Shown here piece by piece: positions 33,150-54,397 of a DNA stretch of 64,000 nucleotides (position 1 is the first letter of the stretch; the number at the start of each line of letters is the position of its first letter). The notes below the pieces were generated by a model. It did no database searches, was not told the origin of the DNA, and saw only the letters and a program-made list of their open reading frames with translations. The stretch is from assembly GCA_024226315.1 (NCBI GenBank), contig JAAELT010000565.1:10305-74304 (forward strand), read 5' to 3'. This stretch comes from a bacterium (GTDB taxonomy: Bacteria > Acidobacteriota > Thermoanaerobaculia > Multivoradales > J023). The position numbers were made by a program, and so were the translations under genes.

Positions 33150-33153
<4 letters not shown>
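32473..33153 (+). CDS. nitroreductase family protein (iodotyrosine-deiodinase-like subgroup)
   Basis: RRSIRHFSGEPVP and SGAHRQPWRFVVI motifs. 226 aa. Confidence 0.75.
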
Positions 33154-38237
<5,084 letters not shown>

Positions 38238-38439: not shown

Positions 38440-40614
38440 TCAGTCCTGTTCCACCCAGGCGTTGATCGCCATCGGCTCGGTCAGGCCGGTGCTCCACAGA
38501 TATCCGGTGCTCCACAGGTAGCCGGTGCTCCACAGATATCCGTCGACGTCCAGATCGGCAGTGCTCCACAGGTAGCCGGTGCTCCACAGGTAGCCGGTGC
38601 TCCACAGGTAGCCGGTGCTCCACAGGTACCCGTCTCCGGAGACCAGGCTGCCGTCCCACTCGAGACCATCCTGGCCTTCGATGTAGAAGCTGCCGTCCTC
38701 GGCCTCCCGAACCGGTCCGGCGTAGTGATCCACGCCGTTCAGGTCGCTGGCGATGTCGAGGCCACCGTTCGCGCAGCCGGACTCGGCCGAGGTCACCGCC
38801 TCGGCGGCGTTCACGATGCCGGCGCCCTGCTGGAAGATGCTGTAGGCGAGCTCGCCGTCGTCGTCGACCGCCGCTCGCGCGGTGGCGATCAGCCGGCACT
38901 TGACGTCGTCGGGAGTCAGCGTCGGGTCGGCCTGGAGGATCAACGCGGCGACGCCCGAGACCACGGCGGCCGCCTGAGAGGTGCCGGACATCACGAAGTA
39001 CTCGTAGCCGTCGTGGAACTTCTTGTAGGTCTTGGGGATGTGGTCCCCCTTCTCCATGATGCCCAGCAGGTGGCCACCGGGCGCGACGATCTCGGGTTTG
39101 ACGAAGCCTTCCACGGTCGGTCCGGCGGCCGAGAAGGTGGACAGGCGATCGTCGGAGGTGTCGCCGGGCGTGAAGTTGTCGGTCATCGCGCCGACGGTGA
39201 TCAGGTACGGCAGGTTGCCGGGCACGCCGACAGTCATCGGGTCGGGGCCGTTGTTGCCGGCCGAGGCCACCACGACGATCCCGGCTTCCCAGGCCGCCAT
39301 GATCGCCTGGTTCAGGGGGTCGTCCCAGTAGTGGGAGCGCGGCTCGGCGCTGATCGACAAATTCAGCACTCGGATGCCATAGGCGTCCTTGTGGTCGACG
39401 ACGAACTCGATGCCGCGGATGACGTCGGCGTAGGTGCCGAGACCGTGCTTGTCGAAAGCCTTGACCGAGACGATGTCGACGTTGGGCGCGACGCCGTTGT
39501 AGGTACCCATGGGCAGACCCCAGGGATCGGTCGACTCGCGGCTATTGGCGATGATGCTCCAGACGTGAGTGCCGTGGCCGTTGCCGTCCTTGGGGTTGTG
39601 GGTGTCGACGGTGTCGGCGATCGCGTCGTACTGCACCAGGATCCGATCCTGACCATGGGCGTTCTTCTTCAGGCCCTTGCCCTTGCCCCACACGCCGGTG
39701 TCGACCGCGGCGACGGTCACCCCATGGCCGTCGATGCCTTCGAGATGGAGCCCGGCGGCGGCGATCAGGGTGGGGAAGTAACTATCCCGCGCGGGGCCGT
39801 TGTTGCCCGGTTCGGGTTTGAGCTCCACGCACTGGCCGTCGGCGAACCCGAGCAGCAAGGAGTAGCTGGCCGGGCTCTGCAGAGCGGTGTGCTGGAATTC
39901 GAGCCGCAGCTCGGCGGTCTGTCCGGCGTCGATCTCGCGGTCGTGGCCGTGGCCCTTCCAGCCCGAATCGATGGTGGTGAAGTAGGGGTCCCGGTGGTGC
40001 TTGAAGATCTCCTTGCCCTCGAGCTTCACCTTCGTGAGCTTGCCGTTGGCATCGGGCCAGCTGACAGAGGCGCTCTCGAGCCGAATCGTGGCGCCCTCCG
40101 AGCTCGTGATGCGCCAATCGACCTTCTTGCCGTCGAAGCTCGGGTGCTCCTCGGCGCTGACGTTGGCGTTGCAGGCCGGGGCGAGGCGCGCGGAGCAATC
40201 GCTCTCCTCGAAGGCGACGTGGATCGTGTACAGCCCGTCGGCGTCGGCGTCCATCTTGAACTCGAACCTCAAGACCGCGCTCTCCCCAGGCTCGATCTCG
40301 CGGTCGTGCCGGTGGCCTTTCCAGCCGGAGTCGATCAGGGTCGACGTCGGGTGGCGCTTGTGCTTGAAGATCTCCTTGCCGCCGAGCCGGAGCTTTTCGA
40401 GCTCCTTGTTGGCGCCCGGCCAGCTCAGGAAGACGCTCTCGATGGTGAGATCGTCGTCGCCGTGGTTCGTGATCGTCCAGTCGACTTTCTTGCGGTCGAA
40501 CACGAGGCTGTCGGAAGCGGAGACGAGACACTCGCCGCTGCTGGTCGCCGCGACGGACAGCGCGGCGAGGATTGGAATCCAGAGTCGGCGCATGCCGACC
40601 TTCAGGTTGCTCAT
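38440..40614 (-). CDS. S8 subtilase, class A (YLWST tail), with two tandem N-terminal domains of unknown function
   Basis: Start set to the ATG at 40614 (MSNLKVGMRRLWIPILAAL), with GGAGGAG 9 nt upstream. Triad motifs are VAAVDTGV, NGHGTHVWS and MSGTSQAAAVVSG. The C-terminus has 7 x GYLWST then GLTEPMAINAWVEQD. Confidence 0.9.
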   Translation of the reverse strand: MSNLKVGMRRLWIPILAALSVAATSSGECLVSASDSLVFDRKKVDWTITNHGDDDLTIESVFLSWPGANKELEKLRLGGKEIFKHKRHPTSTLIDSGWKGHRHDREIEPGESAVLRFEFKMDADADGLYTIHVAFEESDCSARLAPACNANVSAEEHPSFDGKKVDWRITSSEGATIRLESASVSWPDANGKLTKVKLEGKEIFKHHRDPYFTTIDSGWKGHGHDREIDAGQTAELRLEFQHTALQSPASYSLLLGFADGQCVELKPEPGNNGPARDSYFPTLIAAAGLHLEGIDGHGVTVAAVDTGVWGKGKGLKKNAHGQDRILVQYDAIADTVDTHNPKDGNGHGTHVWSIIANSRESTDPWGLPMGTYNGVAPNVDIVSVKAFDKHGLGTYADVIRGIEFVVDHKDAYGIRVLNLSISAEPRSHYWDDPLNQAIMAAWEAGIVVVASAGNNGPDPMTVGVPGNLPYLITVGAMTDNFTPGDTSDDRLSTFSAAGPTVEGFVKPEIVAPGGHLLGIMEKGDHIPKTYKKFHDGYEYFVMSGTSQAAAVVSGVAALILQADPTLTPDDVKCRLIATARAAVDDDGELAYSIFQQGAGIVNAAEAVTSAESGCANGGLDIASDLNGVDHYAGPVREAEDGSFYIEGQDGLEWDGSLVSGDGYLWSTGYLWSTGYLWSTGYLWSTADLDVDGYLWSTGYLWSTGYLWSTGLTEPMAINAWVEQD
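38488..38631 (-). repeat. 18-bp coding tandem repeat (7 GYLWST units, one ADLDVD interruption)
   Basis: The plus strand reads GGTGCTCCACAG[AG]TA[TG]CC repeated. Confidence 0.9.
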
Positions 40615-40698
40615 CTGGTCTATCTCCTCCGTCGATTCGCGATCTCTACTTCGATTCAGAGGATCTCGCGGCAACCTGAACGCCGCTTTGTGCCGAGA

Positions 40699-40715
40699 TT
40701 AAGGCATCTTTAAGG
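40699..40715 (-). promoter_or_regulatory. TTAAGG-N5-TTAAGG direct repeat (11-bp phase)
   Basis: GAGATTAAGGCATCTTTAAGGG, 85-100 nt upstream of the ATG at 40614. Confidence 0.45.
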
Positions 40716-40718
40716 GAG

Positions 40719-42374
40719 CTACTCCTGCTCGACCCACATGTTGACCGCCGCCGGCTCGACCAGGCCGTCGGTCCACAGGTATCCGTCTGTCCACAGATAG
40801 CCGTCGGTCCAGAAGTATCCGTCTGTCCAGAGGTATCCGTCGGTCCACAGGTATCCGTCTGTCCACAGATAGCCGTCGGTCCAGAGGTATCCGTCGGTCC
40901 ACAGGTAGCCGCCGGGCCAGACGGTGCCGTCACCGTCGAGGTCGGCGAGGTAGAAGTTGCCGTCCTCGTCCTGGTGGGCGCGGCCGCCATAGTGCGCGGC
41001 GCCGGCCAGGTCCTTGGCGACGTCGAGTCCGTTGTTGGCGCAGCCGGCGGCGGTCGAGTAGACGGCGTCGCGGGCGTGGACCATACCGGCCCCCTGCTGG
41101 AAGACGCTGTAGGCCAGGGTGCCGGCGGCGCGCACTGCGGGCCGGGCCGAGGCCATCAGCCGGCATTTGACCTCGTCGGGGGTGAGCTGGGGCTCTGCCT
41201 GAATCAGCAGCGCGGCGGCGGCGGAAACGACGGCCGCCGCCTGTGAGGTGCCGGACATGTAGAAGTATTCCCCGTAGATCCATTCCGGATACAACAGAGG
41301 AATCCGTTGATCGGCGTAGGCCTTTGCCAGGATGTGGCCGCCGGGGGCGACGATCTCCGGCTTGACGAAGCCTTCCGCCGTCGGGCCGGCGGCGGAGAAT
41401 GAGGCCAGGAAGTCGTCCCCGGGCATTGCCGGGGTGACGCCGTCGGACATGGCGCCGACGGTGATGGCGTAGGGATTGTTGCCCGGCACACCGATGGTCA
41501 TCGGGTCGGGCCCGGTGTTGCCGGCCGAGGCCACCACCACGATGCCCGCCTGCCAGGCCGCCATCACCGCCTGGTTCAGCGGATCGTCCCAGTAGTGCGA
41601 CTGCGGCGCGGCCGAGAACGACAGGTTCAGCACCCGGATGTTCAACTTCCGTTTGTAGTGCACGATCCAGTCGATGCCACGGATGACGTCGGCGTAGGAG
41701 CCGTTGCCGTCGTCGGCGAAGGCCTTGACCGCGAGCAGCGTGGCTCCAGGGGCGATGCCGTTGTACGCCAGCGGGTCGCCGCCCTTGCGGTTGTCGACCG
41801 CGATGCTCGCCAGGTGGGTGCCGTGCCCGTGCCCGTCGTCGGCCGTGAAGGTGCCGGAGATCGCGTCGTAGTCCTGCCAGGACACGAAGTGTGGATCATT
41901 GGCGGTCATCAGCGCCAGAGGCGGTGCGCGCAGTCCGGTGTCGAGCACCGCGATACCGATGCCGGCGCCTGTGATGCCTTCGTCGTGGAGCTGATCGGCG
42001 CCGATCAGGCGTGGATACTCGGTGTAGGGTCCGGGGTCGTCGCTGTCCATGTCCGAGAGGGCGTCGACGCCCACCTTGCGGTCGTCGTAGATGCGAGTGA
42101 CCGCGGTGTGCTCTTCGAGGGCGGCGCGCTGGGCCGCGGTGAGCTCGGCGCCCGCCGCGCGGATGATCCGCAGCTCGTGGGTGACCTCGCCACCGACCTC
42201 GTGCACCGCGGCGCGAACGGCCGGCAGGTCCTTGCCTTGCACAATCACAGCGGTCGTGGGTTGTTCGGGTGCGATCTCGCTGTCGGTCGGTACCGTCGAG
42301 GCACAGGAGAGGAACAGGAACCCCCCTCCGATGACGGCGGCGAACAGGGATCTCGGGCGCTTTCGGCTCAACAT
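40719..42374 (-). CDS. S8 subtilase, class B (I9 propeptide, YLWTD tail)
   Basis: Signal peptide has FLFLSC. I9-like segment is VIVQGKDLPAVRAAVHEVGGEVTHELRIIRAAGAELTAAQ. Triad motifs are IAVLDTGL, HGHGTHLAS and MSGTSQAAAVVS. The C-terminus has 8 x GY[LF]WTD then GLVEPAAVNMWVEQE. Confidence 0.9.
   Translation of the reverse strand: MLSRKRPRSLFAAVIGGGFLFLSCASTVPTDSEIAPEQPTTAVIVQGKDLPAVRAAVHEVGGEVTHELRIIRAAGAELTAAQRAALEEHTAVTRIYDDRKVGVDALSDMDSDDPGPYTEYPRLIGADQLHDEGITGAGIGIAVLDTGLRAPPLALMTANDPHFVSWQDYDAISGTFTADDGHGHGTHLASIAVDNRKGGDPLAYNGIAPGATLLAVKAFADDGNGSYADVIRGIDWIVHYKRKLNIRVLNLSFSAAPQSHYWDDPLNQAVMAAWQAGIVVVASAGNTGPDPMTIGVPGNNPYAITVGAMSDGVTPAMPGDDFLASFSAAGPTAEGFVKPEIVAPGGHILAKAYADQRIPLLYPEWIYGEYFYMSGTSQAAAVVSAAAALLIQAEPQLTPDEVKCRLMASARPAVRAAGTLAYSVFQQGAGMVHARDAVYSTAAGCANNGLDVAKDLAGAAHYGGRAHQDEDGNFYLADLDGDGTVWPGGYLWTDGYLWTDGYLWTDGYLWTDGYLWTDGYFWTDGYLWTDGYLWTDGLVEPAAVNMWVEQE
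40767..40910 (-). repeat. 18-bp coding tandem repeat (8 units)
   Basis: The plus strand reads GTCGGTCCACAGGTA[TG]CC repeated. Confidence 0.9.
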
Positions 42375-42401
42375 ATCGCTATTCCTTCCGGTCGAAGTTC
42401 G

Positions 42402-43895
42402 TTACTCCGGCGGTACCCAGGCGTTGATCGCCAGGGTCTCGTTCAAGGTAGTGCTCCAGAGGTAGCCGCTGCTCGAGAAGTCGTCTGTCGTGCTCCACAG
42501 GTAACCGTCGTTCCAGAGGTTGCCGGTGCTCCACAGATAGCCGTCGTTCCAGAGGTTGCCGGTGCTCCACAGGTAGCCGTCGTTCCAGAGGTTGCCGGTG
42601 CTCCACAGGTAGCCGGAGCCGGAGACGTAGCGGCCGTCCCACGCGAGACCTTCAGTGCCCTCGACGTAGAAGCTGCCGTCCTCGGCCTCGCGTGCCGGTC
42701 CGAAGTAGTGCTCGACGTCGCCGAGATCCTTTGCGATGTCGAGACCGCCGTTGGCGCAGCCGGTGGCGGTGGAGAAGGCGGCGCCCGCGGCGTCCGCCAG
42801 GCCGGCTCCCTGCTGAAAGACGCTGTAGGCGAGGCCGCCGTCGTTGTCGACCGCCGGGCGGGCCGAGGCGATCAGCCGGCACTTGACGCCGTCAGGGGTG
42901 AGCGACGGGTCGGCCTGCAGCAACAGGGCGGCGATCCCCGATACCACCGCGGCGGCCTGGGAGGTGCCCGACATGGTGAAGTACTCGCCGTGCTCGCGAA
43001 ACTCTGGATGCTCGAAAGCGATGGTAGAGAAGTAGGGCATGATTCCCAGCATGTGCCCGCCGGGCGCCACCACCTCCGGCTTGAGGAAGGCTTCGTAGGT
43101 CGGGCCGGTGGCCGAGAAGGAGGCGAGGAGATCGTCGCCGTCGTCGCCCGGGGTGAAGTTGTCGGTCATGGCGCCGACGGTGATCACGTAGGGCACGTTG
43201 CCGGGTACGCCGACGGTCATCGCATCGGGGCCGTTGTTGCCGGCCGAGGTCACGACCACGATCCCCGCCTGCCAGGCGGCCATCACGGACTGCGCCAGGG
43301 GATCCTCCCAGTAGTGGGAGCGGACCGGGCCGCTGAACGAGAGATTGAGCACGCGGATGCCGTAGGCGTCGCGGTTCGCCACGACCCAGTCGATGCCCCG
43401 GATGACGTCGCCGTAGGTGGCGACGCCGTCGGAGTCGAAGGCCTTGACCACCACCAGATCGGCATCGGGCGCGACGCCGTTGTACTTGCTCTCGGTGCCG
43501 CCGATCCCGCTGCCCGTGGCGATCGAGACGACGTGCGCGGAATGGCCGTTGTAGTCGGTGTAGCTGTGCGATACCTCGCGGTCTTCGATGGCGTCGTACT
43601 GCGCCAGGAGTCGGTAGTCGCCGCTGGCGTTCTCGGCCAGGACCGAGCTCCAGGCGTAGCCGGTGTCGATCACCGCGATGGTCACACCGTGGCCGGTGAT
43701 GCCTTGCTCGTGGAGGGCGTCGGCGCCGATCCGGTTGGGGAAGTCGCTGTACGGTGTGGTGAAGACCGGGCCGGTGCCCCAGCCGCCCCAGCCCCAGGCC
43801 ACGGGCGCGTTCCAGGCCAGTGAAGCCATCGCCAGCAGAATCACCGGCAGGATCCGTCCGTTCAGTGTCCGCGGGTTCGTCGTCGGCGTTTTCAT
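42402..43895 (-). CDS. S8 subtilase, class A (no propeptide, alternating YLWST/NLWND tail)
   Basis: Signal peptide is followed directly by the catalytic domain. Triad motifs are IAVIDTGY, NGHSAHVVS and MSGTSQAAAVVSG. The tail has 5 YLWST plus 3 NLWND units then TLNETLAINAWVPPE. It lies only 27 nt upstream of the next gene. Confidence 0.9.
   Translation of the reverse strand: MKTPTTNPRTLNGRILPVILLAMASLAWNAPVAWGWGGWGTGPVFTTPYSDFPNRIGADALHEQGITGHGVTIAVIDTGYAWSSVLAENASGDYRLLAQYDAIEDREVSHSYTDYNGHSAHVVSIATGSGIGGTESKYNGVAPDADLVVVKAFDSDGVATYGDVIRGIDWVVANRDAYGIRVLNLSFSGPVRSHYWEDPLAQSVMAAWQAGIVVVTSAGNNGPDAMTVGVPGNVPYVITVGAMTDNFTPGDDGDDLLASFSATGPTYEAFLKPEVVAPGGHMLGIMPYFSTIAFEHPEFREHGEYFTMSGTSQAAAVVSGIAALLLQADPSLTPDGVKCRLIASARPAVDNDGGLAYSVFQQGAGLADAAGAAFSTATGCANGGLDIAKDLGDVEHYFGPAREAEDGSFYVEGTEGLAWDGRYVSGSGYLWSTGNLWNDGYLWSTGNLWNDGYLWSTGNLWNDGYLWSTTDDFSSSGYLWSTTLNETLAINAWVPPE
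42450..42614 (-). repeat. 36-bp (2 x 18) coding tandem repeat
   Basis: GYLWSTGNLWND x3, plus GYLWST, a TDDFSSS spacer, and GYLWST. Confidence 0.9.
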
Positions 43896-43977
43896 CGTCC
43901 GCCCCTCTCGTCCGTGGTCGTTCGTGTTGACGGACTCGATCGTGCCGGTCGCGCTTGAACGGTGCTTTGCGCCGAGA

Positions 43978-43994
43978 TTAAGGTTCCATTAACG
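43978..43994 (-). promoter_or_regulatory. TTAAGG-N5-TTAACG direct repeat (11-bp phase)
   Basis: GAGATTAAGGTTCCATTAACGG, 85-100 nt upstream of the ATG at 43895. Confidence 0.45.
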
Positions 43995-44051
43995 GACGAC
44001 GCCACCGCGCCGGGGCGGTGGCGAAGCGTGCGGAGTCGTCGGACTCCGGGA

Positions 44052-46181: not shown

Positions 46182-46207
46182 ATCGTACTTCCTTGTGTCG
46201 AAGGTCG

Positions 46208-46300
46208 TTACGCCGGCGGTACCCAGGCATTGATCGCCAGCTGTTCGGTCAAGGCGGTGCTCCAGAGGTAGCCGCTGTTCCACATGTCGTCGCCGAAATC
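46208..46300 (-). pseudogene. relic of the last ~30 codons of a class A subtilase
   Basis: My translation reads DFGDDMWNSGYLWSTALTEQLAINAWVPPA-stop. It and the following 26-nt spacer are colinear with the 42402 stop / 42374 start junction (CATATCG...GTCGAAG.TCGTTAC.CCGGCGGTACCCAGGC). Confidence 0.6.
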
Positions 46301-46417
46301 TCTTGTCAGTCTCGTGTCGGCGTCACTCTCGAGTTGGTCAGTCGTCTGTTGTTGCAAAGTGGTCCGAGATCGACGCCGAGGTTCCAGGACGCGCCTTGAG
46401 GTCGCTTTGGGGCCTGG

Positions 46418-46434
46418 TTAAGCTCTGTTTAAGC
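46418..46434 (-). promoter_or_regulatory. TTAAGC-N5-TTAAGC direct repeat (11-bp phase)
   Basis: GGTTAAGCTCTGTTTAAGCGG, upstream of the relic and the 46181 gene. Confidence 0.4.
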
Positions 46435-46445
46435 GGCGTGTCCGC

Positions 46446-47825
46446 TTACTCCTGGTCAACCCAGTCGTTGATCGCCGCGGGCTCGATCAAGCCGGTGCTC
46501 CACAGGTAGCCGGTGCTCCACAGATAGCCGGTGCTCCACAGGTAGCCGGTGCTCCACAGATAGCCGTCGTTCCACAGATTGCCGGTGCTCCACAGGTAGC
46601 CGGTGCTCCACAGGTAGCCCGTTCCTGACACGTAGGTGCCGTCCCACTCGTAGCCGCCGTGGCCCTCGATGTAGAAGCTGCCGTCGGCGGCCTCGCGCAC
46701 CGGTCCGGCGTAGTGCTCGATGTCGGCGAGGTCATTGTCGACGTCGATGCCGCCGTTGGCGCAGCCGGTTTTGGTGGAGTAGACCGCGTCGAAGGCGTTG
46801 ATCACGCCGGCGCCCTGCTGGAAGACGCTGTAGGCGAGCTCGTCCTCGTCGACCGCCGGCCTGGCCGAGGCAATCAGCCGGCACTTGACGTCGTCGGGGG
46901 TGAGGGACGGGTCAGCCTGGAGCATCAAGGCGGCGGCGCCCGAGACCACCGCGGCCGCCTGGGAGGTGCCGGAGATCTGGTGCCAAGTGCCGTCCACCTG
47001 GGATTCGGGATGGTCCTTGGGAATCTGCGAGCCGGGCTTGATCTGGCCCAGCATGTGGCCGCCGGGAGCCACCATCTCGGGCTTCAGGAAGGCCTCGAAG
47101 CTCGGGCCGGCGGAGGAGAACGAGGCCAGGCGATCGTCGCTTCCGTCGTCGGGGGTGTAGCTGTCGGTCATGGCGCCGACGGTGATGATGTACGGCACGT
47201 TGCCCGGCACGCCGATCGTGATCGGGTCCGGCCCGGTGTTGCCGGCCGAGGCCACCACCACGATCCCCGCGCGCCACGCCTCCATCACCGCCTGGTTCAG
47301 CGGGTCGTCCCAGTAGAAGGAGTTCAGCGGCGCGCTCATCGACAGGTTGAGCACGCGGATGTTGTAGGCGTCCTTGTTGTCGATGATCCACTGGAGGCCG
47401 CGGATCACGTGGGCGTAGGTGCCGCTGCCCCGCTTGTCGAAGGCCATGACCGCCACCAGGTCGGCGTCGGGCGCCAGGCTGTTGTAGCCCTCGGGAGCCT
47501 CGGCGCTCGACAGCGCGATACTGGCGAGGTGGGTGCCGTGGCCGCTCTTGTCCTTGGCCTTGCCGGCCTTGTCCTTGATCGCGTCGTACTCGGCCAGCAG
47601 GCGGTGTTCGCCCAGGGTGTTCTTCTTGAGGTCGCGGTGGTTCCAGATGCCGGTGTCGAGGAACGCCACGGTGATGCCGTAGCCGGTGATGCCCTGAACG
47701 TGAAGCGCGTCGGCGCCGACCAGGCTCGGGAAGTGCGCGTAGGGAGGATTGCTCTCGGCCTCGATCGGTGCAGCGGCGCAGGTGATCGTCAGGAGGCAGA
47801 GGGCGGAAAGCCAGGTCTTGTTCAT
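46446..47825 (-). CDS. S8 subtilase, class A (no propeptide)
   Basis: Signal peptide is MNKTWLSALCLLTITCAAAPIEA. Triad motifs are VAFLDTGI, SGHGTHLAS and ISGTSQAAAVVSG. The tail has 6 YLWST plus 1 NLWND then GLIEPAAINDWVDQE. Confidence 0.9.
   Translation of the reverse strand: MNKTWLSALCLLTITCAAAPIEAESNPPYAHFPSLVGADALHVQGITGYGITVAFLDTGIWNHRDLKKNTLGEHRLLAEYDAIKDKAGKAKDKSGHGTHLASIALSSAEAPEGYNSLAPDADLVAVMAFDKRGSGTYAHVIRGLQWIIDNKDAYNIRVLNLSMSAPLNSFYWDDPLNQAVMEAWRAGIVVVASAGNTGPDPITIGVPGNVPYIITVGAMTDSYTPDDGSDDRLASFSSAGPSFEAFLKPEMVAPGGHMLGQIKPGSQIPKDHPESQVDGTWHQISGTSQAAAVVSGAAALMLQADPSLTPDDVKCRLIASARPAVDEDELAYSVFQQGAGVINAFDAVYSTKTGCANGGIDVDNDLADIEHYAGPVREAADGSFYIEGHGGYEWDGTYVSGTGYLWSTGYLWSTGNLWNDGYLWSTGYLWSTGYLWSTGYLWSTGLIEPAAINDWVDQE
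46494..46619 (-). repeat. 18-bp coding tandem repeat (7 units)
   Basis: The plus strand reads GGTGCTCCACAG[GA]TAGCC repeated. Confidence 0.9.
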
Positions 47826-47943
47826 CTTGGGTTCTCCAGCGTCAGTTCGAGTGAGCGGATGCCGTTTCCAGCAGCCAGTATTCGGGGAGTAGCGGAGACC
47901 AGCGAGAATGACCGGTGCGTCTGAAGTCCGTCTTGCGTCGTGG

Positions 47944-47960
47944 TTAAGCTCCTCTTAAGC
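47944..47960 (-). promoter_or_regulatory. TTAAGC-N5-TTAAGC direct repeat (11-bp phase)
   Basis: GGTTAAGCTCCTCTTAAGCG, 120-135 nt upstream of the ATG at 47825. Confidence 0.45.
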
Positions 47961-47985
47961 GTGGGGCCTCAGCGGGCTGGGAACG

Positions 47986-48013
47986 AGAAAAGCCGCCGGT
48001 GGGTGCCGGCGGC
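47986..48013 (-). terminator. intrinsic terminator after the 1116-aa subtilase gene
   Basis: The minus strand reads GCCGCCGGCACCCACCGGCGGC followed by TTTTC. Confidence 0.6.
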
Positions 48014-48074
48014 GGAAGAGGAGAAATGGGCTTCGCTGGGGACGAAGCTGTACCGAGGGTACTCGTGCTCGAGC

Positions 48075-51000
48075 CTACTCCTGCGGCACCCAGACATTGA
48101 TCGCCGCCGGCTCGGCCAGAGCCTGGCTCCAGAGATAGGCGTCGTAGTCGGCGTAGGCGTCGGTCCACAGATAGGCATCGGTCCACAGGTAGCCGCCCGT
48201 CCACAGGTAGGCGTCGGTCCACAGATAGCCGCCCGTCCACAGATAGCCGCCCGTCCACAGGTAGCCGTCGGTCCACAGATAGGCGTCGGTCCACAGATAG
48301 CCACCCGTCCAGACGTGGCCGTCTTCGAGCAGGGGCCGTGGACAGTCTTGGACGCAATTCGTGTCCATGATGTAGAAGTTGCCGGTCGAGTCGAGATTGG
48401 CGCCGCCGCCGTAGTGCTCGGTGCCCGCGAGGTCGAGGGCCACGTCGAGACCGTAGTTGGCGCAGCCCGAGGCGGCCGAATAGACAGCGTCGTAGGCGTG
48501 GGCCATCCCCGCACCCTGTTGGAAGATGCTGTAGTGGAGCGTGCCGTCGGGCTTGATCGCGGGTCGCGCGGAGGCCATCACCCGGCACTTGATGTCGTCG
48601 GGGCTCAGCACAGGGTCGGATTCCAGCATCAACGCCGCGATTCCGCTCATCACTCCCGCTGCCTGCGAGGTGCCGGACATGTAGAAATAGTCCCCGTCAT
48701 TGTCATAGAGCCACTCAGGATGCTGGCTGGGGAGGGTGTCACTCGGATCCACTAGCCCCAGCAGATGGCCGCCGGGAGTGACGATCTCTGGTTTGATGAA
48801 ACCCTCCACGGTCGGCCCGGCCGATGAGAACGAGGTCAGATAATCGTCGCCGAGCTGCTCCGGGGTGCCGGCGTCTGACATCGCGCCGACGGTGATGACG
48901 TAGGGAACGTTCCCAGGAACACCGATGGTCATCGGGTCCGGCCCGAAGTTGCCTGCCGAGGCCACGACCACGATCCCGGCTTCCCAGGCAGCCATCACCG
49001 CCTGGTTGAGTGGATCGTCCCAGTAATGGGAGTGGGGCTCGGCACTGATCGACAGGTTGAGCACCCGGATGTTGTAGGCAGACTGGTTCTGCACGATCCA
49101 ATCGAGCCCGCGGATGACGTCGGCATAAGTGCCCTGGCCGTTGACGCCGAACGCCTTGACCGCCACCAGGTTGGCGTCGGGAGCGATGCCGTTGTGCTGG
49201 AGGGAATTGCCCGGCTTCTGACTGTTGAGGATCACGCTCGCCACATGAGTGCCGTGACCGTGTTGATCCTGTGCCGTGCCCTCGCTGTCTGCGATGGCGT
49301 CGTATTGCGCCAACAGGCGGTTCTCCTTGCGGGTGTTCTTCTTCAGGGCGCGCTTCGGCTTGATGCCGGTGTCGAGCAGCGCGACCGTGATTCCGTCGCC
49401 GGTGACGCCCTGATCGTGGAGCTGTCCCGCGTTGACGAGAGTCGCGACCTCGGAATCGGGCGTGGCGGGGAAGGCGACCTCGACGTTGTCGACGTAGAAG
49501 TACTCGTTCGAGCCGCCGTACAGGTTGGTAACCCGAAAGCGGATCACGGGGTCGGAGTCGAGATCGCCCGAGAGGTCGTAGCTCCGCTCGCCCGAAGTAG
49601 TGCCGCTGATGCCGGTGATTGACTCGAGCAACGAATAGCTCGAGCCGCCGTCGGTGGAGACCTCCACTGCCACCGCATCGCTCGAGTCGACGCCCGGGGA
49701 GGTCCGGAAATCGAAGCTGAGGACCGCCTGGCCGGCGCTGCCCGAGAGGTCCGCCCGGCGTGCCGCGCTCGGCTGGCCGCCGGTGTTGGGCTGATCGTCG
49801 AGGCGCAGCTCGCCGTAGATGACGCGCACCTGGCCGGCTCCGGGGCCGGTGCCGCCGGCCTCGGGGTCGTCTTCCAGCCAAGCGCCGATCCAGCCGACCG
49901 AACCGTCGTCGTTGCCGAAAGATGCGGCGCTGAACTCGTCGCGAACGTTGCTGGTGCCGCCGCCGGTGGCGCCACCATCGCCACCGCCGCCACTGCTCGC
50001 GACAGTGTAGGTGATCTCAAGAAGCGGCTCCTCGTCGTCCTTCTCGCGACTGGAGAGTTTGGCCTCGCCGTCGGCTCCGGTGGGATCCAGGAGCACGCCG
50101 TGGTTGGCATGGATACCGGCCACCCAGTCCCCGGCCAGGGCGGTGACGTCCACTTCCTGCCAACCCTTGGTGTCAGGCGAAAACGAGCCCGCCACCGCCG
50201 CGTCGAAGTCGCCGCCGGGGCTCGCCCAGGAGCTCGGGTCGTCGTGGTGGATCCAGTCGGCACCACTGTCGCTGTCACCGATGCCTTCGGCCCAGCTGGC
50301 GTCGAGGCGGTGGACGTTGATGGTCTGATCGGACCTGTCGCCTGTCACGTTGAGGTGCAGCTTGGCAGTGCTCACCGACACCCCGGCCGGGACGGCGGAG
50401 AGATCGAAGCGCAGCAACACGCGCTGGATCTTGCCGGCTTCAGGCTTGAGCTTGAGGTCGTTGTCGTCGCCTTTGTTATCGTCCGTGTTGTCCTGCCTGA
50501 TGAAGGTGTCGGCGACGGCGGGCAAGAGGACGGTCGTGGATGGTGGGGGCCCGCCCCCGCCGGTATCGTAGGACACGCTGAGCAAGGGCGCGGCTCCCGA
50601 CTCGCCCTCGTAGGACTTTGCCGTGCGCTCGCCGGAGCCGGAGACCACGAAGACCATGCTGTTGCCGCTCGCCCAGCCGGGACGGTTGACGACCTCCTGC
50701 ACCAGCGCCGAAAGGTCCGGCGTCAGGTGCTTCTCGCTCACGCTCGACCAGGGCGCCGGGTTCCAGCCCACCGCGGCACTCGTGGTCGGACGGCTGCTGA
50801 CGTCGAAGGCGTTGGAGGTGAACACCGCGGCGTTGTCCGCGGCCTCCGCTTTGAAGGTCAGCGAGGTGGCCACGCTGTCGGTCTCGTCGGTCTCGAGCTC
50901 GATCCGCGCCGAGGTGATGGTCGCCCCGGCGGGGATCGCCAGGTTCTGGAAACGGATCCCAACCAGCTGCGCAGTGGAGCCCTCGTCGACCAGCTCCAGA

Positions 51001-51425
51001 TCCGAGCTGTTGATGTACATCGAACCGCTGCCAGCGTTCTCTTCCACGTCGTCCGAGCCCTGGCTCACCCGCGAACTGATGGTCGTGACCGCTGAAACCC
51101 GGACCGCGGCGTCGCCGTAGATCCGACGCACGGCAGCCGAATGCTGTAGCCCGTACTCCTGCGCCGGGGTCAGCCGTGCGCCCACCGCGTGGATGATTCC
51201 GAGCTCATGGGTGACCGTCGCGCCCGCGGCTTCGACGGCCGTTCTGACCGTCTCGAGATCGGTGCCCTGGACGATGAAGGAGGCTGTTGTTTCGGGGGCC
51301 GAAGTAAAGGCGTCTGGTGTGTCGCTGCAGCTCGAAATCAGGAGGAGGCCGAGGATCATCTCTATTGCTCCTACGATCGTCATCGAGCTGCGGGCGGTGC
51401 TGTTGCCTGTGGAATCTCGGAACAT
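48075..51425 (-). CDS. large S8 subtilase, class B (I9 propeptide, about 550 aa of extra beta-sandwich-like modules, YLWT[DG] tail)
   Basis: Possible lipoprotein signal LLLISSC (alternative ATG at 51383). I9-like segment is FIVQGTDLETVRTAVEAAGATVTHELGIIHAVGARLTPAQ. Triad motifs are VALLDTGI, HGHGTHVAS and MSGTSQAAGVMSG. The tail has 9 units then ALAEPAAINVWVPQE. Confidence 0.9.
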   Translation of the reverse strand: MFRDSTGNSTARSSMTIVGAIEMILGLLLISSCSDTPDAFTSAPETTASFIVQGTDLETVRTAVEAAGATVTHELGIIHAVGARLTPAQEYGLQHSAAVRRIYGDAAVRVSAVTTISSRVSQGSDDVEENAGSGSMYINSSDLELVDEGSTAQLVGIRFQNLAIPAGATITSARIELETDETDSVATSLTFKAEAADNAAVFTSNAFDVSSRPTTSAAVGWNPAPWSSVSEKHLTPDLSALVQEVVNRPGWASGNSMVFVVSGSGERTAKSYEGESGAAPLLSVSYDTGGGGPPPSTTVLLPAVADTFIRQDNTDDNKGDDNDLKLKPEAGKIQRVLLRFDLSAVPAGVSVSTAKLHLNVTGDRSDQTINVHRLDASWAEGIGDSDSGADWIHHDDPSSWASPGGDFDAAVAGSFSPDTKGWQEVDVTALAGDWVAGIHANHGVLLDPTGADGEAKLSSREKDDEEPLLEITYTVASSGGGGDGGATGGGTSNVRDEFSAASFGNDDGSVGWIGAWLEDDPEAGGTGPGAGQVRVIYGELRLDDQPNTGGQPSAARRADLSGSAGQAVLSFDFRTSPGVDSSDAVAVEVSTDGGSSYSLLESITGISGTTSGERSYDLSGDLDSDPVIRFRVTNLYGGSNEYFYVDNVEVAFPATPDSEVATLVNAGQLHDQGVTGDGITVALLDTGIKPKRALKKNTRKENRLLAQYDAIADSEGTAQDQHGHGTHVASVILNSQKPGNSLQHNGIAPDANLVAVKAFGVNGQGTYADVIRGLDWIVQNQSAYNIRVLNLSISAEPHSHYWDDPLNQAVMAAWEAGIVVVASAGNFGPDPMTIGVPGNVPYVITVGAMSDAGTPEQLGDDYLTSFSSAGPTVEGFIKPEIVTPGGHLLGLVDPSDTLPSQHPEWLYDNDGDYFYMSGTSQAAGVMSGIAALMLESDPVLSPDDIKCRVMASARPAIKPDGTLHYSIFQQGAGMAHAYDAVYSAASGCANYGLDVALDLAGTEHYGGGANLDSTGNFYIMDTNCVQDCPRPLLEDGHVWTGGYLWTDAYLWTDGYLWTGGYLWTGGYLWTDAYLWTGGYLWTDAYLWTDAYADYDAYLWSQALAEPAAINVWVPQE
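48123..48302 (-). repeat. 18-bp coding tandem repeat (9 units, one AYADYD interruption)
   Basis: [GA]YLWT[DG] x8, plus AYLWSQ. Confidence 0.9.
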
Positions 51426-51548
51426 GGTGTCTTCCTACGATGAGTTATGGGTTCCGTCTCTCCAGAAAGACGAAACACTGCCAAACGAAACACTGCCAAG
51501 TCGATTTCGATTCTGGCCGGCGAATGTTGGTCCTAGCTGTTTCTCCCG

Positions 51549-51565
51549 TTAGGTCGGTGTTAAGC
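51549..51565 (-). promoter_or_regulatory. TTAGGT-N5-TTAAGC direct repeat (11-bp phase)
   Basis: CGTTAGGTCGGTGTTAAGCC, about 125-140 nt upstream of the ATG at 51425. Confidence 0.35.
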
Positions 51566-51594
51566 CGAACGCCTGGATTCTGCTCGCTGAGCGC

Positions 51595-51623
51595 GAAAAA
51601 GCCGCCAGCGGATGCCGGCGGCG
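51595..51623 (-). terminator. intrinsic terminator after the 448-aa subtilase gene
   Basis: The minus strand reads GCCGCCGGCATCCGCTGGCGGC followed by TTTTTC. It is followed by the same conserved 3-prime UTR block (GGAAGAGGAGAA.TGGGC.TCGCTGGGGA) seen at 48013..48050. Confidence 0.6.
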
Positions 51624-51683
51624 GAAGAGGAGAAGTGGGCGTCGCTGGGGAACGAGGCCGTGCAGGAATCTGTCTCGAGAGAT

Positions 51684-53030
51684 CTACTCTTGATCCACCC
51701 AGATGTTGATCGACGCTGGCTCGGTGAGGCCTGTGCTCCAGAGGTAACCGGTGCTCCAGAGGTATCCGGTGCTCCACAGGTATCCGGTGCTCCAGAGGTA
51801 GCCGTCGCCGGCCACGTGGCTGCCGTCCCACTCGAAGCCCTGGTGGCCCTCGATGTAGAAACTGCCGTCGGAGGCTTCGCGCACCGGGCCGGCGTAGTGC
51901 TCGACGCCAGCGAGATCCAGAGAGACGTCGATGCCGCCGTTGGCGCAGCCCGTTTCGAGGGAGTACACGGCGTCGTGGGCGTTGACCATACCGGCGCCCT
52001 GCTCGAAGACGGTGTAGGCGAGCTCGTCATTCTCGTCCACCGCCGGCCGGGCCGAGGCGATCAGCCGGCACTTGACCTCGTCGGGGGTGAGCGACGGGTC
52101 GGCCTCGAGGATCAGGGCGGCAGCGCCCGTAACCATGGCCGCTGCCTGGGAGGTGCCCGACATGGTGAAATAGGTACCGGCGTCGTGGAATTCGGGGTGA
52201 TCGACGGCGATCCGCGCCGAGTCGTCCATGAGCGCCTTGATGTGTCCGCCGGGCGCCACCACCTCGGGCTTGAGGAAGGCCTCGAAGCTCGGCCCCGCCG
52301 AGGAGAACGTCGCCAACAGATCGTCGGTGCCGTCGTTCGGGGTGTAGTTGTCGGTCATCGCGCCGACCGTGATCACGTACGGCACGTTGCCGGGCACGCC
52401 GATGGTCATCGCGCCGGGGCCGGTGTTGCCGGCCGAGGCGACCACCACGATCCCCGCCTGCCAGGCGGCCATCACCGCCTGGTTGAGCGGGTCGTCCCAG
52501 TAGTGGGAGCGGACCTCGGCGCTGAGCGACAAGTTCAGCACCCGGATGCCGTAGGCTTCCTTGTTGGCCACCACCCACTCGATACCGCGGATGACGTCGG
52601 CGTAGGTGCCCAAGCCTTCGTCGTCGAGCGCCTTGACCGAAACCAGATCGGCGTCGGGGGCGATGCCCAGATACTGGCCGTTCTGTTTCTTGGAGTTGAT
52701 CGCCACCGAGGTCACGTGCCCGCCGTGACCGTTGCCGTCGTCGCTCGACCACCACACCTGCTGGTCGGCGATGGCGTCGTACTGAGCGAGCAGGCGGTTG
52801 CGGTTGAACGTGTCTTTGTTGAGATTCTTGTGCGCGTAGTATCCGGTGTCGATCATCGCCACGGTGACGCCGTGGCCGGTGACGCCCTGCTCGTGGAGGA
52901 GGTCGGCCCCCACCAGACTCGGCGAGGCCACCGCTTCGGCGGTGCACCAGAGCAGCGCGGTGATCGCCAGCAGCACGATCAGCGAGGTCGGTCCGTTACT
53001 CTTTGTCGTGTACATCGTCTTGTCCTTCAC
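51684..53030 (-). CDS. S8 subtilase, class A (no propeptide)
   Basis: Triad motifs are VAMIDTGY, NGHGGHVTS and MSGTSQAAAMVTG. The tail has 4 x GYLWST then GLTEPASINIWVDQE. Confidence 0.9.
   Translation of the reverse strand: MKDKTMYTTKSNGPTSLIVLLAITALLWCTAEAVASPSLVGADLLHEQGVTGHGVTVAMIDTGYYAHKNLNKDTFNRNRLLAQYDAIADQQVWWSSDDGNGHGGHVTSVAINSKKQNGQYLGIAPDADLVSVKALDDEGLGTYADVIRGIEWVVANKEAYGIRVLNLSLSAEVRSHYWDDPLNQAVMAAWQAGIVVVASAGNTGPGAMTIGVPGNVPYVITVGAMTDNYTPNDGTDDLLATFSSAGPSFEAFLKPEVVAPGGHIKALMDDSARIAVDHPEFHDAGTYFTMSGTSQAAAMVTGAAALILEADPSLTPDEVKCRLIASARPAVDENDELAYTVFEQGAGMVNAHDAVYSLETGCANGGIDVSLDLAGVEHYAGPVREASDGSFYIEGHQGFEWDGSHVAGDGYLWSTGYLWSTGYLWSTGYLWSTGLTEPASINIWVDQE
51732..51803 (-). repeat. 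18-bp coding tandem repeat (4 units)
   Basis: The plus strand reads GGTGCTCCA[GC]AGGTA[AT]CC repeated. Confidence 0.9.
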
Positions 53031-54330: not shown

Positions 54331-54397
54331 CGCTTCACCCCCGGCTACGGCGCTACCTGCGGAAACGGTTGCCACTGTGCGGACTCTAGGCCCGCCT

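Follow-up and report, generated by a model that had tools for sequence, protein, structure and literature searches.

A cluster of seven subtilase genes with a shared C-terminal module

The 64-kb stretch of DNA analysed here (64,000 nucleotides, referred to below as the window) carries seven S8 subtilase genes on the minus strand, named p1 to p7 in ascending coordinate order, together with a sensor kinase gene on one side and two smaller genes on the other. The first-pass annotation had claimed that all seven proteases end in tandem Trp-containing hexapeptides followed by an invariant tail, and this observation is confirmed. All seven genes end in 4-9 hexapeptides of the form G-[YN]-[LF]-W-[ST]-x, encoded by 18-bp tandem DNA repeats, followed by the tail L-x-E-P-x-A-I-N-x-W-V-x-Q-E and the stop codon. 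The features are as follows.

33150..38237 (-), hybrid sensor kinase with signal/TM, about 14 Reg_prop blades, Y_Y_Y, TM, PAS, HisKA, HATPase, 2 REC and Hpt; it starts 203 nt downstream of p1 on the same strand and is the conserved neighbour of the protease clade
38440..40674 (-), p1, S8 subtilase (Peptidase_S8, E=6.5e-52) with two copies of an unassigned ~110-aa N-terminal domain; the true start is probably the internal M of MSNLKVGMRRLW
38443..38775 (-), p1 C-terminal module, consisting of a mini-domain CANGG..HYAGP..DGSFY, then 7 hexapeptides (DNA array 38485-38632), then the tail (38443-38487)
40719..42374 (-), p2, S8 subtilase with a lipobox (FLSC) and a fused I9-like propeptide
40722..41042 (-), p2 C-terminal module, 8 hexapeptides GYLWTD (DNA array 40765-40919) and the tail (40722-40766)
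42402..43895 (-), p3, S8 subtilase with a signal peptide and no propeptide, 99% identical to P0003
42405..42758 (-), p3 C-terminal module, 8 units alternating GYLWST and GNLWND (36-bp period, DNA array 42451-42616) and the tail (42405-42449)
44052..46283 (-), p4, S8 subtilase with a lipobox, an I9-like propeptide and an insert weakly like choice-of-anchor J
44055..44387 (-), p4 C-terminal module, 8 hexapeptides (DNA array 44123-44277) and the tail (44055-44099)
46446..47825 (-), p5, S8 subtilase with a signal peptide and no propeptide; the protein modelled with AlphaFold2
46449..46763 (-), p5 C-terminal module, 7 hexapeptides (DNA array 46490-46619) and the tail (46449-46493)
48075..51425 (-), p6, S8 subtilase with a lipobox (ISSC), an I9-like propeptide, a DNRLRE/CBM96 domain and a choice-of-anchor-J-like region
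48078..48464 (-), p6 C-terminal module, 9 hexapeptides (DNA array 48128-48311) and the tail (48078-48122)
51684..53030 (-), p7, S8 subtilase with a signal peptide and no propeptide
51687..51947 (-), p7 C-terminal module, 4 hexapeptides (DNA array 51733-51804) and the tail (51687-51731)
53159..53575 (-), stand-alone lipoprotein made of an I9-like subtilase propeptide, with no Pfam hit; its similarity to the p2/p4/p6 propeptides was judged by eye
53572..54375 (-), OmpR-type response regulator at the upstream end of the array

Each gene ends with exactly the tail that had been reported for it, i.e., GLTEPMAINAWVEQD, GLVEPAAVNMWVEQE, TLNETLAINAWVPPE, SLAEPAAINMWVDQE, GLIEPAAINDWVDQE, ALAEPAAINVWVPQE and GLTEPASINIWVDQE. 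To ensure that these matches were not due to chance, we scanned all six frames of the 64-kb window with a regular expression; the tail motif was found seven times only, always at these ORF ends, and the same scan counted 7, 8, 8, 8, 7, 9 and 4 hexapeptide units. At the DNA level, Tandem Repeats Finder reported 18-bp arrays, with 36- and 54-bp super-periods, in all seven genes, with matches of 80-96% for the main rows and 66% for the period-18 reading of p3, whose true period is 36 bp. The description of the tail as invariant is slightly too strong, since p3 has E-T and P-P-E, p1 ends in D, p2 has V for I, and p7 has S for A. The further claim that copy number can change by slippage is plausible across orthologues, where counts run from 0 to 17; however, no such change was seen in the one close strain available (L001), which is 99.35% identical over 5081 nt with no indel across p2 and p3.

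Distribution, conservation and predicted structure of the module

We next examined if the module is known, and if it is confined to this lineage. The first-pass annotation had named two findings that would count against it, namely a match of the repeat plus tail to a described domain or sorting signal, and absence from orthologues in related genomes; neither was found. Searches of Pfam and NCBIfam returned nothing even at E<=10, no PDB entry matched, and the searched literature had nothing for it. On the other hand, the module is present in hundreds of orthologues across phyla, and we collected 299 non-redundant tail-bearing sequences from Gammaproteobacteria, Acidobacteriota, Chloroflexota and other phyla. 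Across these 299 homologues, only W(-5), V(-4), N(-7), Q(-2) and E(-1) are near-invariant, with frequencies of N 87%, W 100% (by selection), V 98%, Q 86% and E 91%; the tail is much more conserved than the repeats and is always flush with the C-terminus.

The module occurs only on this S8 clade. Of 130 pattern matches in genomes, about 123 are real, and 106 of these have an S8 domain in the same ORF, the rest being locus-edge truncations, 3 frameshifts and 2 remnants; among 1.84 billion proteins, 68 of 69 long profile hits are S8. The carriers form a widespread group of exported AprX/Tk-SP-like subtilases, of which the module is the clade-defining C-terminal extension. It has three parts: a conserved ~45-residue mini-domain that follows the catalytic domain, with a near-invariant Cys pair probably linking the two; a slippage-prone array of aromatic hexapeptides, [GAS]-[YF]-[LVAI]-W-[SNT]-[DN], with a median of about 7 copies; and a 9-14-residue terminal peptide, [SA]-[IV]-N-x-W-V-x-Q-E-COOH. 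The closest solved relative of the catalytic domain is Tk-SP (3afg/9ues, E about 1e-49), which aligns only to residues 44-350. Like the aqualysin I C-terminal pro-sequence, the PPC pre-peptidase C-terminal domain and the Tk-SP C-terminal domain, the module is an extra segment after an S8 catalytic domain in an exported enzyme; those extensions, however, are folded domains of about 100 residues, whereas this one is a hexapeptide array plus a 15-residue tail.

To examine if the repeats adopt a fold of their own, we modelled p5 with AlphaFold2, which found no confident fold for them. In the full-length model, the repeats scored pLDDT 36-60, while the tail reached pLDDT 66-71 and formed a 4-residue strand (449-452). 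When the C-terminal fragment was modelled without the catalytic domain, the repeats scored 66-71 with no DSSP strand, and the tail dropped to pLDDT about 51 and lost its strand, although this fragment-only model was poor overall. The tail is placed only with moderate confidence, and only when the catalytic domain is present.

A sensor gene beside the protease genes

Examination of the gene neighborhoods revealed that a Reg_prop/Y_Y_Y double-propeller sensor gene, with histidine-kinase, GGDEF, sigma-54 or other outputs, lies directly after the protease or protease array in the window and in many other loci. Among 85 tails with at least 1.5 kb of downstream sequence, the next gene is the sensor in 32 and another protease paralogue in 20, while about 39% have neither as the next gene. 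A sensor gene is contained in 55 of 122 loci examined, compared to an expectation that we estimate at under about 3% for a random 8-kb block. All seven contexts retrieved by protein look-up (loci L002-L005, L123, L124 and L127) also carry it, and when we started from the sensor instead, 2 of 2 close homologues were preceded by tail-bearing proteases. The outputs differ (13 histidine kinase, 16 GGDEF, HWE kinase, sigma-54 AAA+) while the propeller ectodomain is kept; the sensing domain is therefore what goes with the protease. More distant SpoIIE-output homologues of the sensor, by contrast, sit next to an M1/M28 peptidase and an alpha2-macroglobulin that lack the module, and the sensor family therefore does not need this tail. 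No transporter, sortase or exosortase-like gene recurs in the neighborhoods examined.

Candidate roles of the C-terminal module

The interpretations offered by the first-pass annotation, i.e., a Trp-zipper-like beta-meander, a signal for an export or attachment machinery, and an autoprocessed region releasing hexapeptides, are partly supported. The module is indeed unassigned and does not resemble the known C-terminal sorting tags. The beta-meander receives no support from AlphaFold2, and only W and its small or polar neighbors are conserved across relatives, with units that include NEGTSW, DASAWG, GNPWID and GNPFLD; the meander is neither shown nor excluded. A general sorting tag is refuted by the confinement of the tail to S8 proteases in the counts above, but the idea of a recognition peptide survives in changed form; the conserved neighbor is a sensor rather than a transporter or sortase.

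Our preferred, though tentative, explanation is that the extension is a flexible aromatic tether carrying a terminal docking peptide that couples these proteases to the co-encoded sensor. In this view, the hexapeptide array would act as a flexible, sticky tether and the terminal peptide would be the functional end, a docking motif probably helped by the Trp units, whose most likely reader is the extracytoplasmic double beta-propeller of the Reg_prop/Y_Y_Y sensor. While the anatomy of the module, its conservation, its exclusivity to S8 proteases and the synteny come directly from the data, the flexibility of the tether, the docking role of the tail and the identity of its partner, and hence the function, are inferences, and binding was neither assayed nor modelled. 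Beta-propellers commonly bind short linear motifs. TolB binds the disordered Trp-containing TolB box of colicin E9, which, like the module, is a Gly/Ser/Asp/Trp-rich sequence without a fold of its own that could be read by a periplasmic beta-propeller; there is no sequence relationship, the TolB box is a single epitope, not a repeat array, and this analogy was not tested here. Likewise, the c-di-GMP receptor LapD of Pseudomonas holds the periplasmic protease LapG, and in both cases a transmembrane signalling protein of the c-di-GMP world is encoded with an exported protease that could be bound by the receptor's extracytoplasmic domain. Here, however, the protease is S8 rather than a LapG-type cysteine protease, the ectodomain is a double beta-propeller plus Y_Y_Y rather than a PAS/Cache-like domain, and the outputs are active-type GGDEF, histidine kinase or sigma-54; this comparison concerns only how the system might work.

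Several points weigh against this explanation. The synteny could be purely regulatory, with the sensor reading substrate peptides, as Bacteroides hybrid two-component sensors do in polysaccharide utilisation loci. Those sensors share the ectodomain family (Pfam Reg_prop and Y_Y_Y) and are also encoded beside exported hydrolases, but the hydrolases here are proteases, not glycanases, the outputs are histidine kinase with REC and Hpt, GGDEF, sigma-54 or SpoIIE rather than AraC-type, and the hosts are Gammaproteobacteria, Acidobacteriota and Chloroflexota; the ligand is unknown. In addition, the dependence of the tail strand on the protease's own catalytic domain in the AlphaFold2 models favors an intramolecular partner, and in diderms the propeller is periplasmic, whereas the enzyme may work outside the cell.

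Only slightly less possible is that the extension is a C-terminal latency or pro-region, in which the tether lets the terminal peptide fold back into the enzyme's own substrate cleft as a poorly cleavable pseudo-substrate (P1 = Ile or Val, P1' = Asn), keeping the protease silent until the extension is removed by autoprocessing, while the neighboring sensor would only regulate expression. Besides the behavior of the tail strand, two segments that we aligned by hand to the cleft walls of subtilisin BPN' are also in strand conformation in the full-length model, S134-T136 (roughly BPN' 101-103) and M163-A165 (roughly BPN' 126-128), although the pairing partner of the tail strand is inferred from the DSSP string only. 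Furthermore, p3, p5 and p7 lack the usual N-terminal propeptide, and the wide variation in repeat number suits a simple tether. Many secreted subtilases shed C-terminal extensions, and Bacillus intracellular subtilisins are inhibited by a short terminal extension (LIPY/F motif) lying across the active site; that extension, however, sits at the opposite terminus, has a different motif and belongs to intracellular enzymes. Against this reading, p2, p4 and p6, which have a fused I9-like propeptide, keep the tail just the same, and mutual information between the tail and catalytic-domain columns showed no signal. Nor does it explain the strict requirement for a free Q-E C-terminus, the conservation of only W in the repeats, or the synteny.

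A somewhat more doubtful possibility is an adhesion or anchoring platform, in which the Trp/Tyr-rich repeats, as a beta-meander, a solenoid or an interfacial strip, would stick the enzyme to the cell surface, to exopolymer, or to insoluble protein or polysaccharide particles, with the tail capping or stabilizing the array. The repeat composition, an aromatic residue flanked by Ser/Thr/Asn/Asp/Gly, is typical of carbohydrate- and interface-binding surfaces; many homologues show period-12 alternation, as expected for hairpin units, with W-W spacing of 12 in 15% of cases; carriers are largely sediment-, particle- or host-associated taxa such as Woeseiaceae, Thermoanaerobaculia and Kangiellaceae; and p6 also carries a CBM96/DNRLRE domain. 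However, no beta structure is predicted for the repeats, their hydrophobic positions other than W are not conserved, no binding-repeat family was matched, and this reading gives no reason for the extreme conservation of the tail or for the synteny with the sensor. Compared to choline-binding repeats, Trp-zipper hairpins and the hexapeptide left-handed beta-helix, the module shares aromatic repeats or a period of 6, but it has no Pfam or NCBIfam hit and no predicted beta structure.

It is unlikely that the extension is a dedicated export or sorting signal, needed for passage across the outer membrane or for covalent attachment by an unknown machinery. Its strictly C-terminal position, shared with PEP-CTERM, GlyGly-CTERM, LPXTG and T9SS CTD tags, and its conserved sequence are compatible with such a role, all seven proteins have Sec signal peptides or lipoboxes, so that a second targeting step is conceivable, and the C-terminal pro-sequence of aqualysin I is needed for secretion. 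Nevertheless, the tail is found on one protein family only, has no hydrophobic helix, transmembrane helix or basic cluster, and is present in Chloroflexota on long contigs (locus L013, 340 kb; locus L089, 70 kb) as well as in diderm phyla, and, as noted, no transporter, sortase or exosortase-like gene recurs in the neighborhoods examined.

Comparably unlikely, though still possible, is a precursor of diffusible peptides, in which self-cleavage after the aromatic residues would release defined Trp hexapeptides as signals or products. The near-identical units carry large hydrophobic residues that subtilisins accept at P1, and the adjacent sensor lends this idea some interest; cleavage was not examined here, but the unit sequence is very variable between relatives, even within one array, no modifying enzymes were found in the neighborhoods, and the conserved tail is not explained. 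Finally, a functionless low-complexity expansion by replication slippage, suggested by the 18-bp DNA repeats, is contradicted by preservation of the reading frame, the period of 6, the W position and the tail across several phyla and hundreds of proteins, and by the unchanged copy number between the two strains.

Altogether, this undescribed module marks a widespread protease clade whose genes sit next to a membrane sensor, which hints at an unknown protease-to-signalling link. If the docking explanation is correct, the cell's two-component or c-di-GMP circuitry would be told about its exported proteases through contact between extension and sensor, and the extension could act while still attached, or after it is clipped off.

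Seven tandem subtilases and their C-terminal module

To determine if the seven subtilases described in the first-pass annotation share one C-terminal ending, we translated the tandem genes on the minus strand, scanned the window in six frames with a regular expression for the tail motif, and searched the DNA with Tandem Repeats Finder. The features of this region are as follows:

38440-40674, minus strand, p1, S8 subtilase
39700-40560, minus strand, N-terminal part of p1, two ~110-aa copies of a domain (FDxKKVDWxIT...SGWKGHxHDREI...) placed before the catalytic domain, with no Pfam or NCBIfam match
40719-42374, minus strand, p2, S8 subtilase
42402-43895, minus strand, p3, S8 subtilase
44052-46283, minus strand, p4, S8 subtilase
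46446-47825, minus strand, p5, S8 subtilase
48075-51425, minus strand, p6, S8 subtilase
51684-53030, minus strand, p7, S8 subtilase
44700-45400 (p4) and 49300-49800 (p6), a shared ~150-aa insert between the propeptide and the catalytic domain, weakly similar to choice-of-anchor J (E=7e-4 in p6)
51601-51622 and 47992-48013, minus strand, near-identical GC-rich terminator-like hairpins after p7 and p6
53159-53575, minus strand, 138-aa ORF with a lipobox (LMSC) and an I9-like propeptide
33150-38237, minus strand, 1695-aa hybrid sensor kinase

All seven proteins matched Pfam PF00082 (Peptidase S8) at E=1e-48 to 1e-53, and the motifs of the catalytic triad, i.e., DTG, GHG[TGS]H or GHSAH, and SGTSQAAA, are visible in every translation. 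Every protein ends with hexapeptides of the form G-[YN]-[LF]-W-[ST]-x, followed by a 15-residue tail and the stop codon. Within the 64-kb window, the tail motif was found exactly seven times, always at the ends of these ORFs, with 7, 8, 8, 8, 7, 9, and 4 repeat units, respectively, from p1 to p7. At the DNA level, 18-bp arrays with 36- and 54-bp super-periods were detected in all seven genes, with matches mostly of 80-96%. The observation made from the sequence alone therefore holds, although calling the tail invariant is a slight overstatement, since p3 reads TLNETLAINAWVPPE and p1 ends in D.

All seven proteins have N-terminal export signals. Those of p2, p4, and p6 are lipobox-like sequences (FLSC, FLSC, and ISSC) followed by an I9-like propeptide, while p3, p5, and p7 have plain signal peptides and no propeptide. 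The 138-aa ORF, which encodes a lipobox plus an I9-like propeptide and nothing else, lies just upstream of p7 and may act as a chaperone or inhibitor in trans for p3, p5, and p7. Downstream of the catalytic domain lies a conserved segment of ~45 residues, C-A-N-G-G-x-D...H-Y-x-G-P...D-G-x-[FY]-Y, after which come the repeats and the tail. In an alignment of 119 sequences, the first Cys of this segment and a Cys in the last catalytic helix are both nearly invariant, suggesting a disulfide and an oxidizing, extracytoplasmic location; this is an inference. The terminator-like hairpins (GCCGCCGGCA.CC....GGCGGC followed by a T run) lie about 60 nt after the stop codons of p7 and p6; the gene-plus-terminator unit was therefore duplicated, and the array is not a single operon.

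A comparison of repeat copy number between strains had been suggested at the outset. A contig of assembly GCA_024449835.1 (locus L001), whose very large accession series suggests a host or metagenome assembly, is 99.35% identical to positions 39873-44953 over 5081 nt with no indel, and the repeat numbers of p2 and p3 are the same in the two strains. The other nearest DNA relatives are Thermoanaerobaculia-type loci with 72-75% identity.

Distribution of the module and comparison with known signals and repeats

We next examined if the module is already described, a match to a known domain or sorting signal having been named beforehand as grounds for abandoning its novelty. When whole proteins were scanned against Pfam and NCBIfam, only the S8 domain was matched, with DNRLRE/CBM96 in addition in p6. 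When the isolated module was scanned down to E<=10, only noise appeared: Bombesin, La, and WXXGXW (PF12779), the last at E=0.031 in 1 of 7 members and below threshold. The closest solved structure is Tk-SP (3afg/9ues), which aligns to residues 44-350 only, and PDB searches with a profile of the module and with its AlphaFold2 model by fold found nothing. Literature searches for the repeat and tail peptides, for Y_Y_Y or Reg_prop sensors together with subtilisins or proteases, and for the related assembly gave nothing relevant; a paper on Lysobacter HtsH concerns such sensors but not proteases.

Absence of the module from orthologues had likewise been put forward as a result that would count against it. 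A search with p7 gave 1810 hits at E<1e-20, and nearly all of the best 120 (51-61% identity) end in the same way, with repeats following [GSA][YF][LIVM]W[STN][DNGSQ] and an end of ...S-I-N-x-W-V-x-Q-E. A word-indexed search with the module alone returned a single hit, as its low complexity defeats that index. Scanning one genome per species with the back-translated tail plus a stop codon recovered at least 117 stretches with 130 matches, of which about 123 are real. Carriers include Gammaproteobacteria (Woeseiaceae, Steroidobacteraceae, Kangiellaceae, Halieaceae, and Chromatiaceae), Acidobacteriota (Thermoanaerobaculia and Holophagae), Chloroflexota on contigs of 340 and 70 kb, Gemmatimonadota, and Acidimicrobiia on short contigs only; the taxonomy of MAGs on short contigs is uncertain. 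Four cultured strains carry the module, i.e., Alteromonas salexigens, Pleionea mediterranea DSM 25350, Colwellia sp. RSH04, and Thiocystis violacea DSM 208.

Over 299 non-redundant tail-bearing sequences, the W-W spacing is 6 in 69% of cases and 12 in 15%, the unit is [GAS]-[YF]-[LVAI]-W-[SNT]-[DN], and the median is about 7 units with a range of 0-17. The tail reads L-[TAS]-E-[PTSA]-[MA]-[SA]-[IV]-N(87%)-x-W-V(98%)-x-Q(86%)-E(91%)-COOH. The unit drifts widely, with AYFWND, DSMLWA, NEGTSW, DASAWG, GNPWID, and even GNPFLD; only the aromatic position and its small or polar neighbors are held, while the tail is far better conserved. Repeats and tail can be uncoupled: some relatives keep the Trp repeats but lack the canonical tail (the first gene of locus L123, at 832-2553, and proteins P0143 and P0191), and protein P0146 has units of 11-12 residues and extra ARYLWD repeats at its N terminus.

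To test if the tail is a general sorting tag, we inspected the proteins that carry it. Of the 130 matches, 106 have an S8 domain in the same ORF; the others are cut by a locus edge, are frameshifted copies with S8 upstream (loci L016, L086, and L109), are two orphan remnants, or are the seven chance hits. The two orphans, in loci L020 (about 150-275; ...SLTETMSINTWVDQE) and L116 (about 22-156; ...SLGETMSINGWVEQE), end short ORFs with no S8 domain within 3 kb upstream and are probably deletion remnants or assembly joins. A profile of the module run against 1.84 billion representatives found 314 proteins; of the 69 that are at least 330 aa long, 68 are S8, and the exception is a eukaryotic low-complexity false positive. 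No sortase, exosortase, or rhombosortase gene was seen in the neighborhoods examined, which were searched in place of whole genomes. A general tag is therefore rejected, as no tail was found on any non-S8 protein, and together with the presence in Chloroflexota this argues against a PEP-CTERM-style or outer-membrane-specific signal.

We then compared the module with known signals and repeats one by one. PEP-CTERM, GlyGly-CTERM, and LPXTG type signals have a signature motif followed by a hydrophobic transmembrane helix and a basic cluster, while the tail examined here ends in W-V-x-Q-E, is acidic, and has no hydrophobic stretch. The T9SS C-terminal domain (Por_Secre_tail), a beta-sandwich of about 80-100 residues in Bacteroidota hosts, gave no hit, and the carriers here are Gammaproteobacteria, Acidobacteriota, and Chloroflexota. 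The module does not fit type I secretion (RTX) with its nonapeptide GGxGxDxUx repeats and lack of an N-terminal signal peptide, since its period is 6 with no GG motif and all seven proteins have signal peptides or lipoboxes. The period of 6 is shared with the hexapeptide-repeat left-handed beta-helix (PF00132), but Pfam found no hit at E<=10 and AlphaFold2 predicted no strands in the repeats. There was no hit to choline-binding or cell-wall-binding repeats (CW_binding), which are aromatic repeats of about 20 residues, and compared to WXXGXW units the W-W spacing is 6, not 5.

Predicted structure and the neighboring sensor gene

Structure prediction of a catalytic domain together with its tail was among the checks proposed initially. 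In the AlphaFold2 model of full-length p5, made with 119 homologues, the catalytic domain and the ~45-residue segment are confident (pLDDT about 90), the repeats (residues 400-442) score pLDDT 36-60, and the tail scores 66-71 with a beta-strand at residues 449-452. When the C-terminal 105 residues were modeled alone with 69 homologues, the repeats scored pLDDT 66-71 but had no DSSP structure, and the tail scored about 51 with no strand. The repeats thus have no confidently predicted fold of their own, and the placement of the tail depends on the catalytic domain. D-G and N-G turns and period-12 alternation are common, yet no strand was assigned to the repeats and no experiment was performed, so these data speak neither decisively for nor against the Trp-zipper-like beta-meander first suggested. 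In the full-length model, S134-T136 and M163-A165 are also strands, and by our hand alignment these correspond to the two walls of the substrate cleft in subtilisin BPN' (101-103 and 126-128). This would fit the tail lying in the cleft as a pseudo-substrate, an inference of low weight because the model coordinates were not inspected. Mutual information between tail positions and catalytic-domain columns in 239 sequences reached a maximum corrected value of 0.115 with no outlier; the residue mapping was unreliable, and the result was discarded.

The unexpected finding is the neighbor of the array. Directly downstream of p1, 203 nt away on the same strand, lies the 1695-aa hybrid kinase, whose extracytoplasmic part is a Reg_prop double propeller (E=4e-62) plus a Y_Y_Y domain (E=3e-18), placing it in the Reg_prop/Y_Y_Y sensor family; the signal-like N terminus and a transmembrane helix after residue 826 are visible in its sequence. 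An OmpR-type regulator closes the other end of the array. The propeller blades carry D-x-x-G-x-L-W-[VI]-G-T, for example QGYLWFGT and QGYLWLSS, which resembles the protease unit D-G-Y-L-W-S. This could be coincidence, common origin, or mimicry, and the Reg_prop model of Pfam does not match the protease repeats.

To examine if this pairing recurs, we analyzed the loci collected from other genomes. A close homologue of this ectodomain is present in 55 of the 122 loci examined. Among 85 tails with at least 1.5 kb of downstream sequence, the next gene is the sensor in 32, another protease paralogue in 20, and something else in 33. All seven contexts obtained through protein look-ups (loci L002, L003, L004, L005, L123, L124, and L127) have the sensor within a few kb. 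Starting from the sensor, both close homologues tested are preceded by tail-bearing proteases, three in L123 and one in L124. A third conserved gene between protease and sensor was considered, but it turned out to be another S8 paralogue in loci L005 and L054 and a REC-GGDEF-EAL protein in L025, L040, and L060. A search for sigma-54 promoters upstream of the protease genes gave 37 matches against 52.6 expected by chance, thus no signal.

The part of the sensor that is conserved is the ectodomain. Outputs vary, with 13 histidine kinase, 16 GGDEF, HWE-type kinase, and, in locus L094, a directly fused sigma-54 AAA+ activator. REC/PAS-GGDEF-EAL proteins, PatA_N/PilZ proteins, and sigma-54 activators recur between or beside the protease and sensor genes (loci L025, L040, L060, L003, L127, L123, and L124). 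More distant homologues with a SpoIIE output lie directly after a 2028-aa bacterial alpha2-macroglobulin (loci L125/L126, 1837-11288) or after an M1/M28/PDZ peptidase (the context of protein P0280). The alpha2-macroglobulin lacks the Trp tail, whereas the C terminus of the peptidase was not examined. The sensor family therefore seems tied to extracytoplasmic proteolysis in general.

Possible roles of the extension

The data show a clade-specific extension in three parts (mini-domain, aromatic hexapeptide array, and terminal peptide) on exported subtilases that are genomically coupled to a propeller sensor; that the array is a flexible, slippage-tolerant tether and the terminal peptide a docking motif is our inference. 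The interpretation in the first-pass annotation is partly supported, in that the module is indeed unassigned and unlike the sorting tags named there, while the beta-meander is left undecided, a general attachment or export tag is contradicted, and a precursor of released hexapeptides is unlikely.

We tentatively prefer the co-encoded propeller ectodomain as the partner of the terminal peptide, which would make the extension the link between the enzymes and the kinase or c-di-GMP circuit. This preference rests on the exclusivity of the module to the sensor-linked clade, on the strictly terminal and highly conserved peptide, typical of short linear motifs read by a partner domain, and on the conservation of the sensing domain rather than the output domain. 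Synteny is the only evidence for the pair, and it may reflect regulation only; capture of the protease by the ectodomain, as in a LapD-LapG-like receptor-protease pair, was not assayed, nor was enzymatic activity. Precedents exist for propellers binding disordered Trp motifs (TolB and colicin E9) and for signaling receptors holding exported proteases (LapD and LapG).

Nearly as possible, though also doubtful, is a C-terminal latency or pro-region that plugs the enzyme's own cleft, the reading favored by the AlphaFold2 behavior; it and the sensor-ligand reading are not mutually exclusive. An adhesion platform is somewhat less likely. A dedicated export signal and a hexapeptide precursor are both improbable, and functionless slippage is very improbable.

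Altogether, the feature is real, conserved, and undescribed: a subtilase C-terminal extension with no family model, no structure, and no literature that we could find, embedded in a conserved protease-sensor gene pair that appears to be unreported. Subtilases of this clade are among the commonest predicted exoproteases in marine-sediment and host-associated Woeseiaceae, Thermoanaerobaculia, Kangiellaceae, and relatives, and the module deserves a Pfam or NCBIfam model whichever role it has. What the widespread proteobacterial and acidobacterial propeller sensors sense is, to our knowledge, unknown, and the tight, cross-phylum pairing with a protease makes the unknown ligand of a large sensor family directly testable in cultured strains. 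If the tail instead proves to be an active-site plug, it would be a new latency device for S8 proteases. In a further reading, which the evidence leaves possible but which we regard as doubtful, the Trp-hexapeptide array and its W-V-x-Q-E-COOH end are the built-in ligand of the neighboring double-propeller sensor, acting tethered to the enzyme or after being clipped off. This would give the first defined ligand for the non-Bacteroides Reg_prop/Y_Y_Y sensors. If so, exported subtilases would report their own presence, location, or activity to a histidine-kinase, c-di-GMP, or sigma-54 circuit, a self-reporting exoenzyme system conserved from Gammaproteobacteria to Acidobacteriota and Chloroflexota, and the pairing could reveal how bacteria couple costly secreted enzymes to biofilm and motility decisions.
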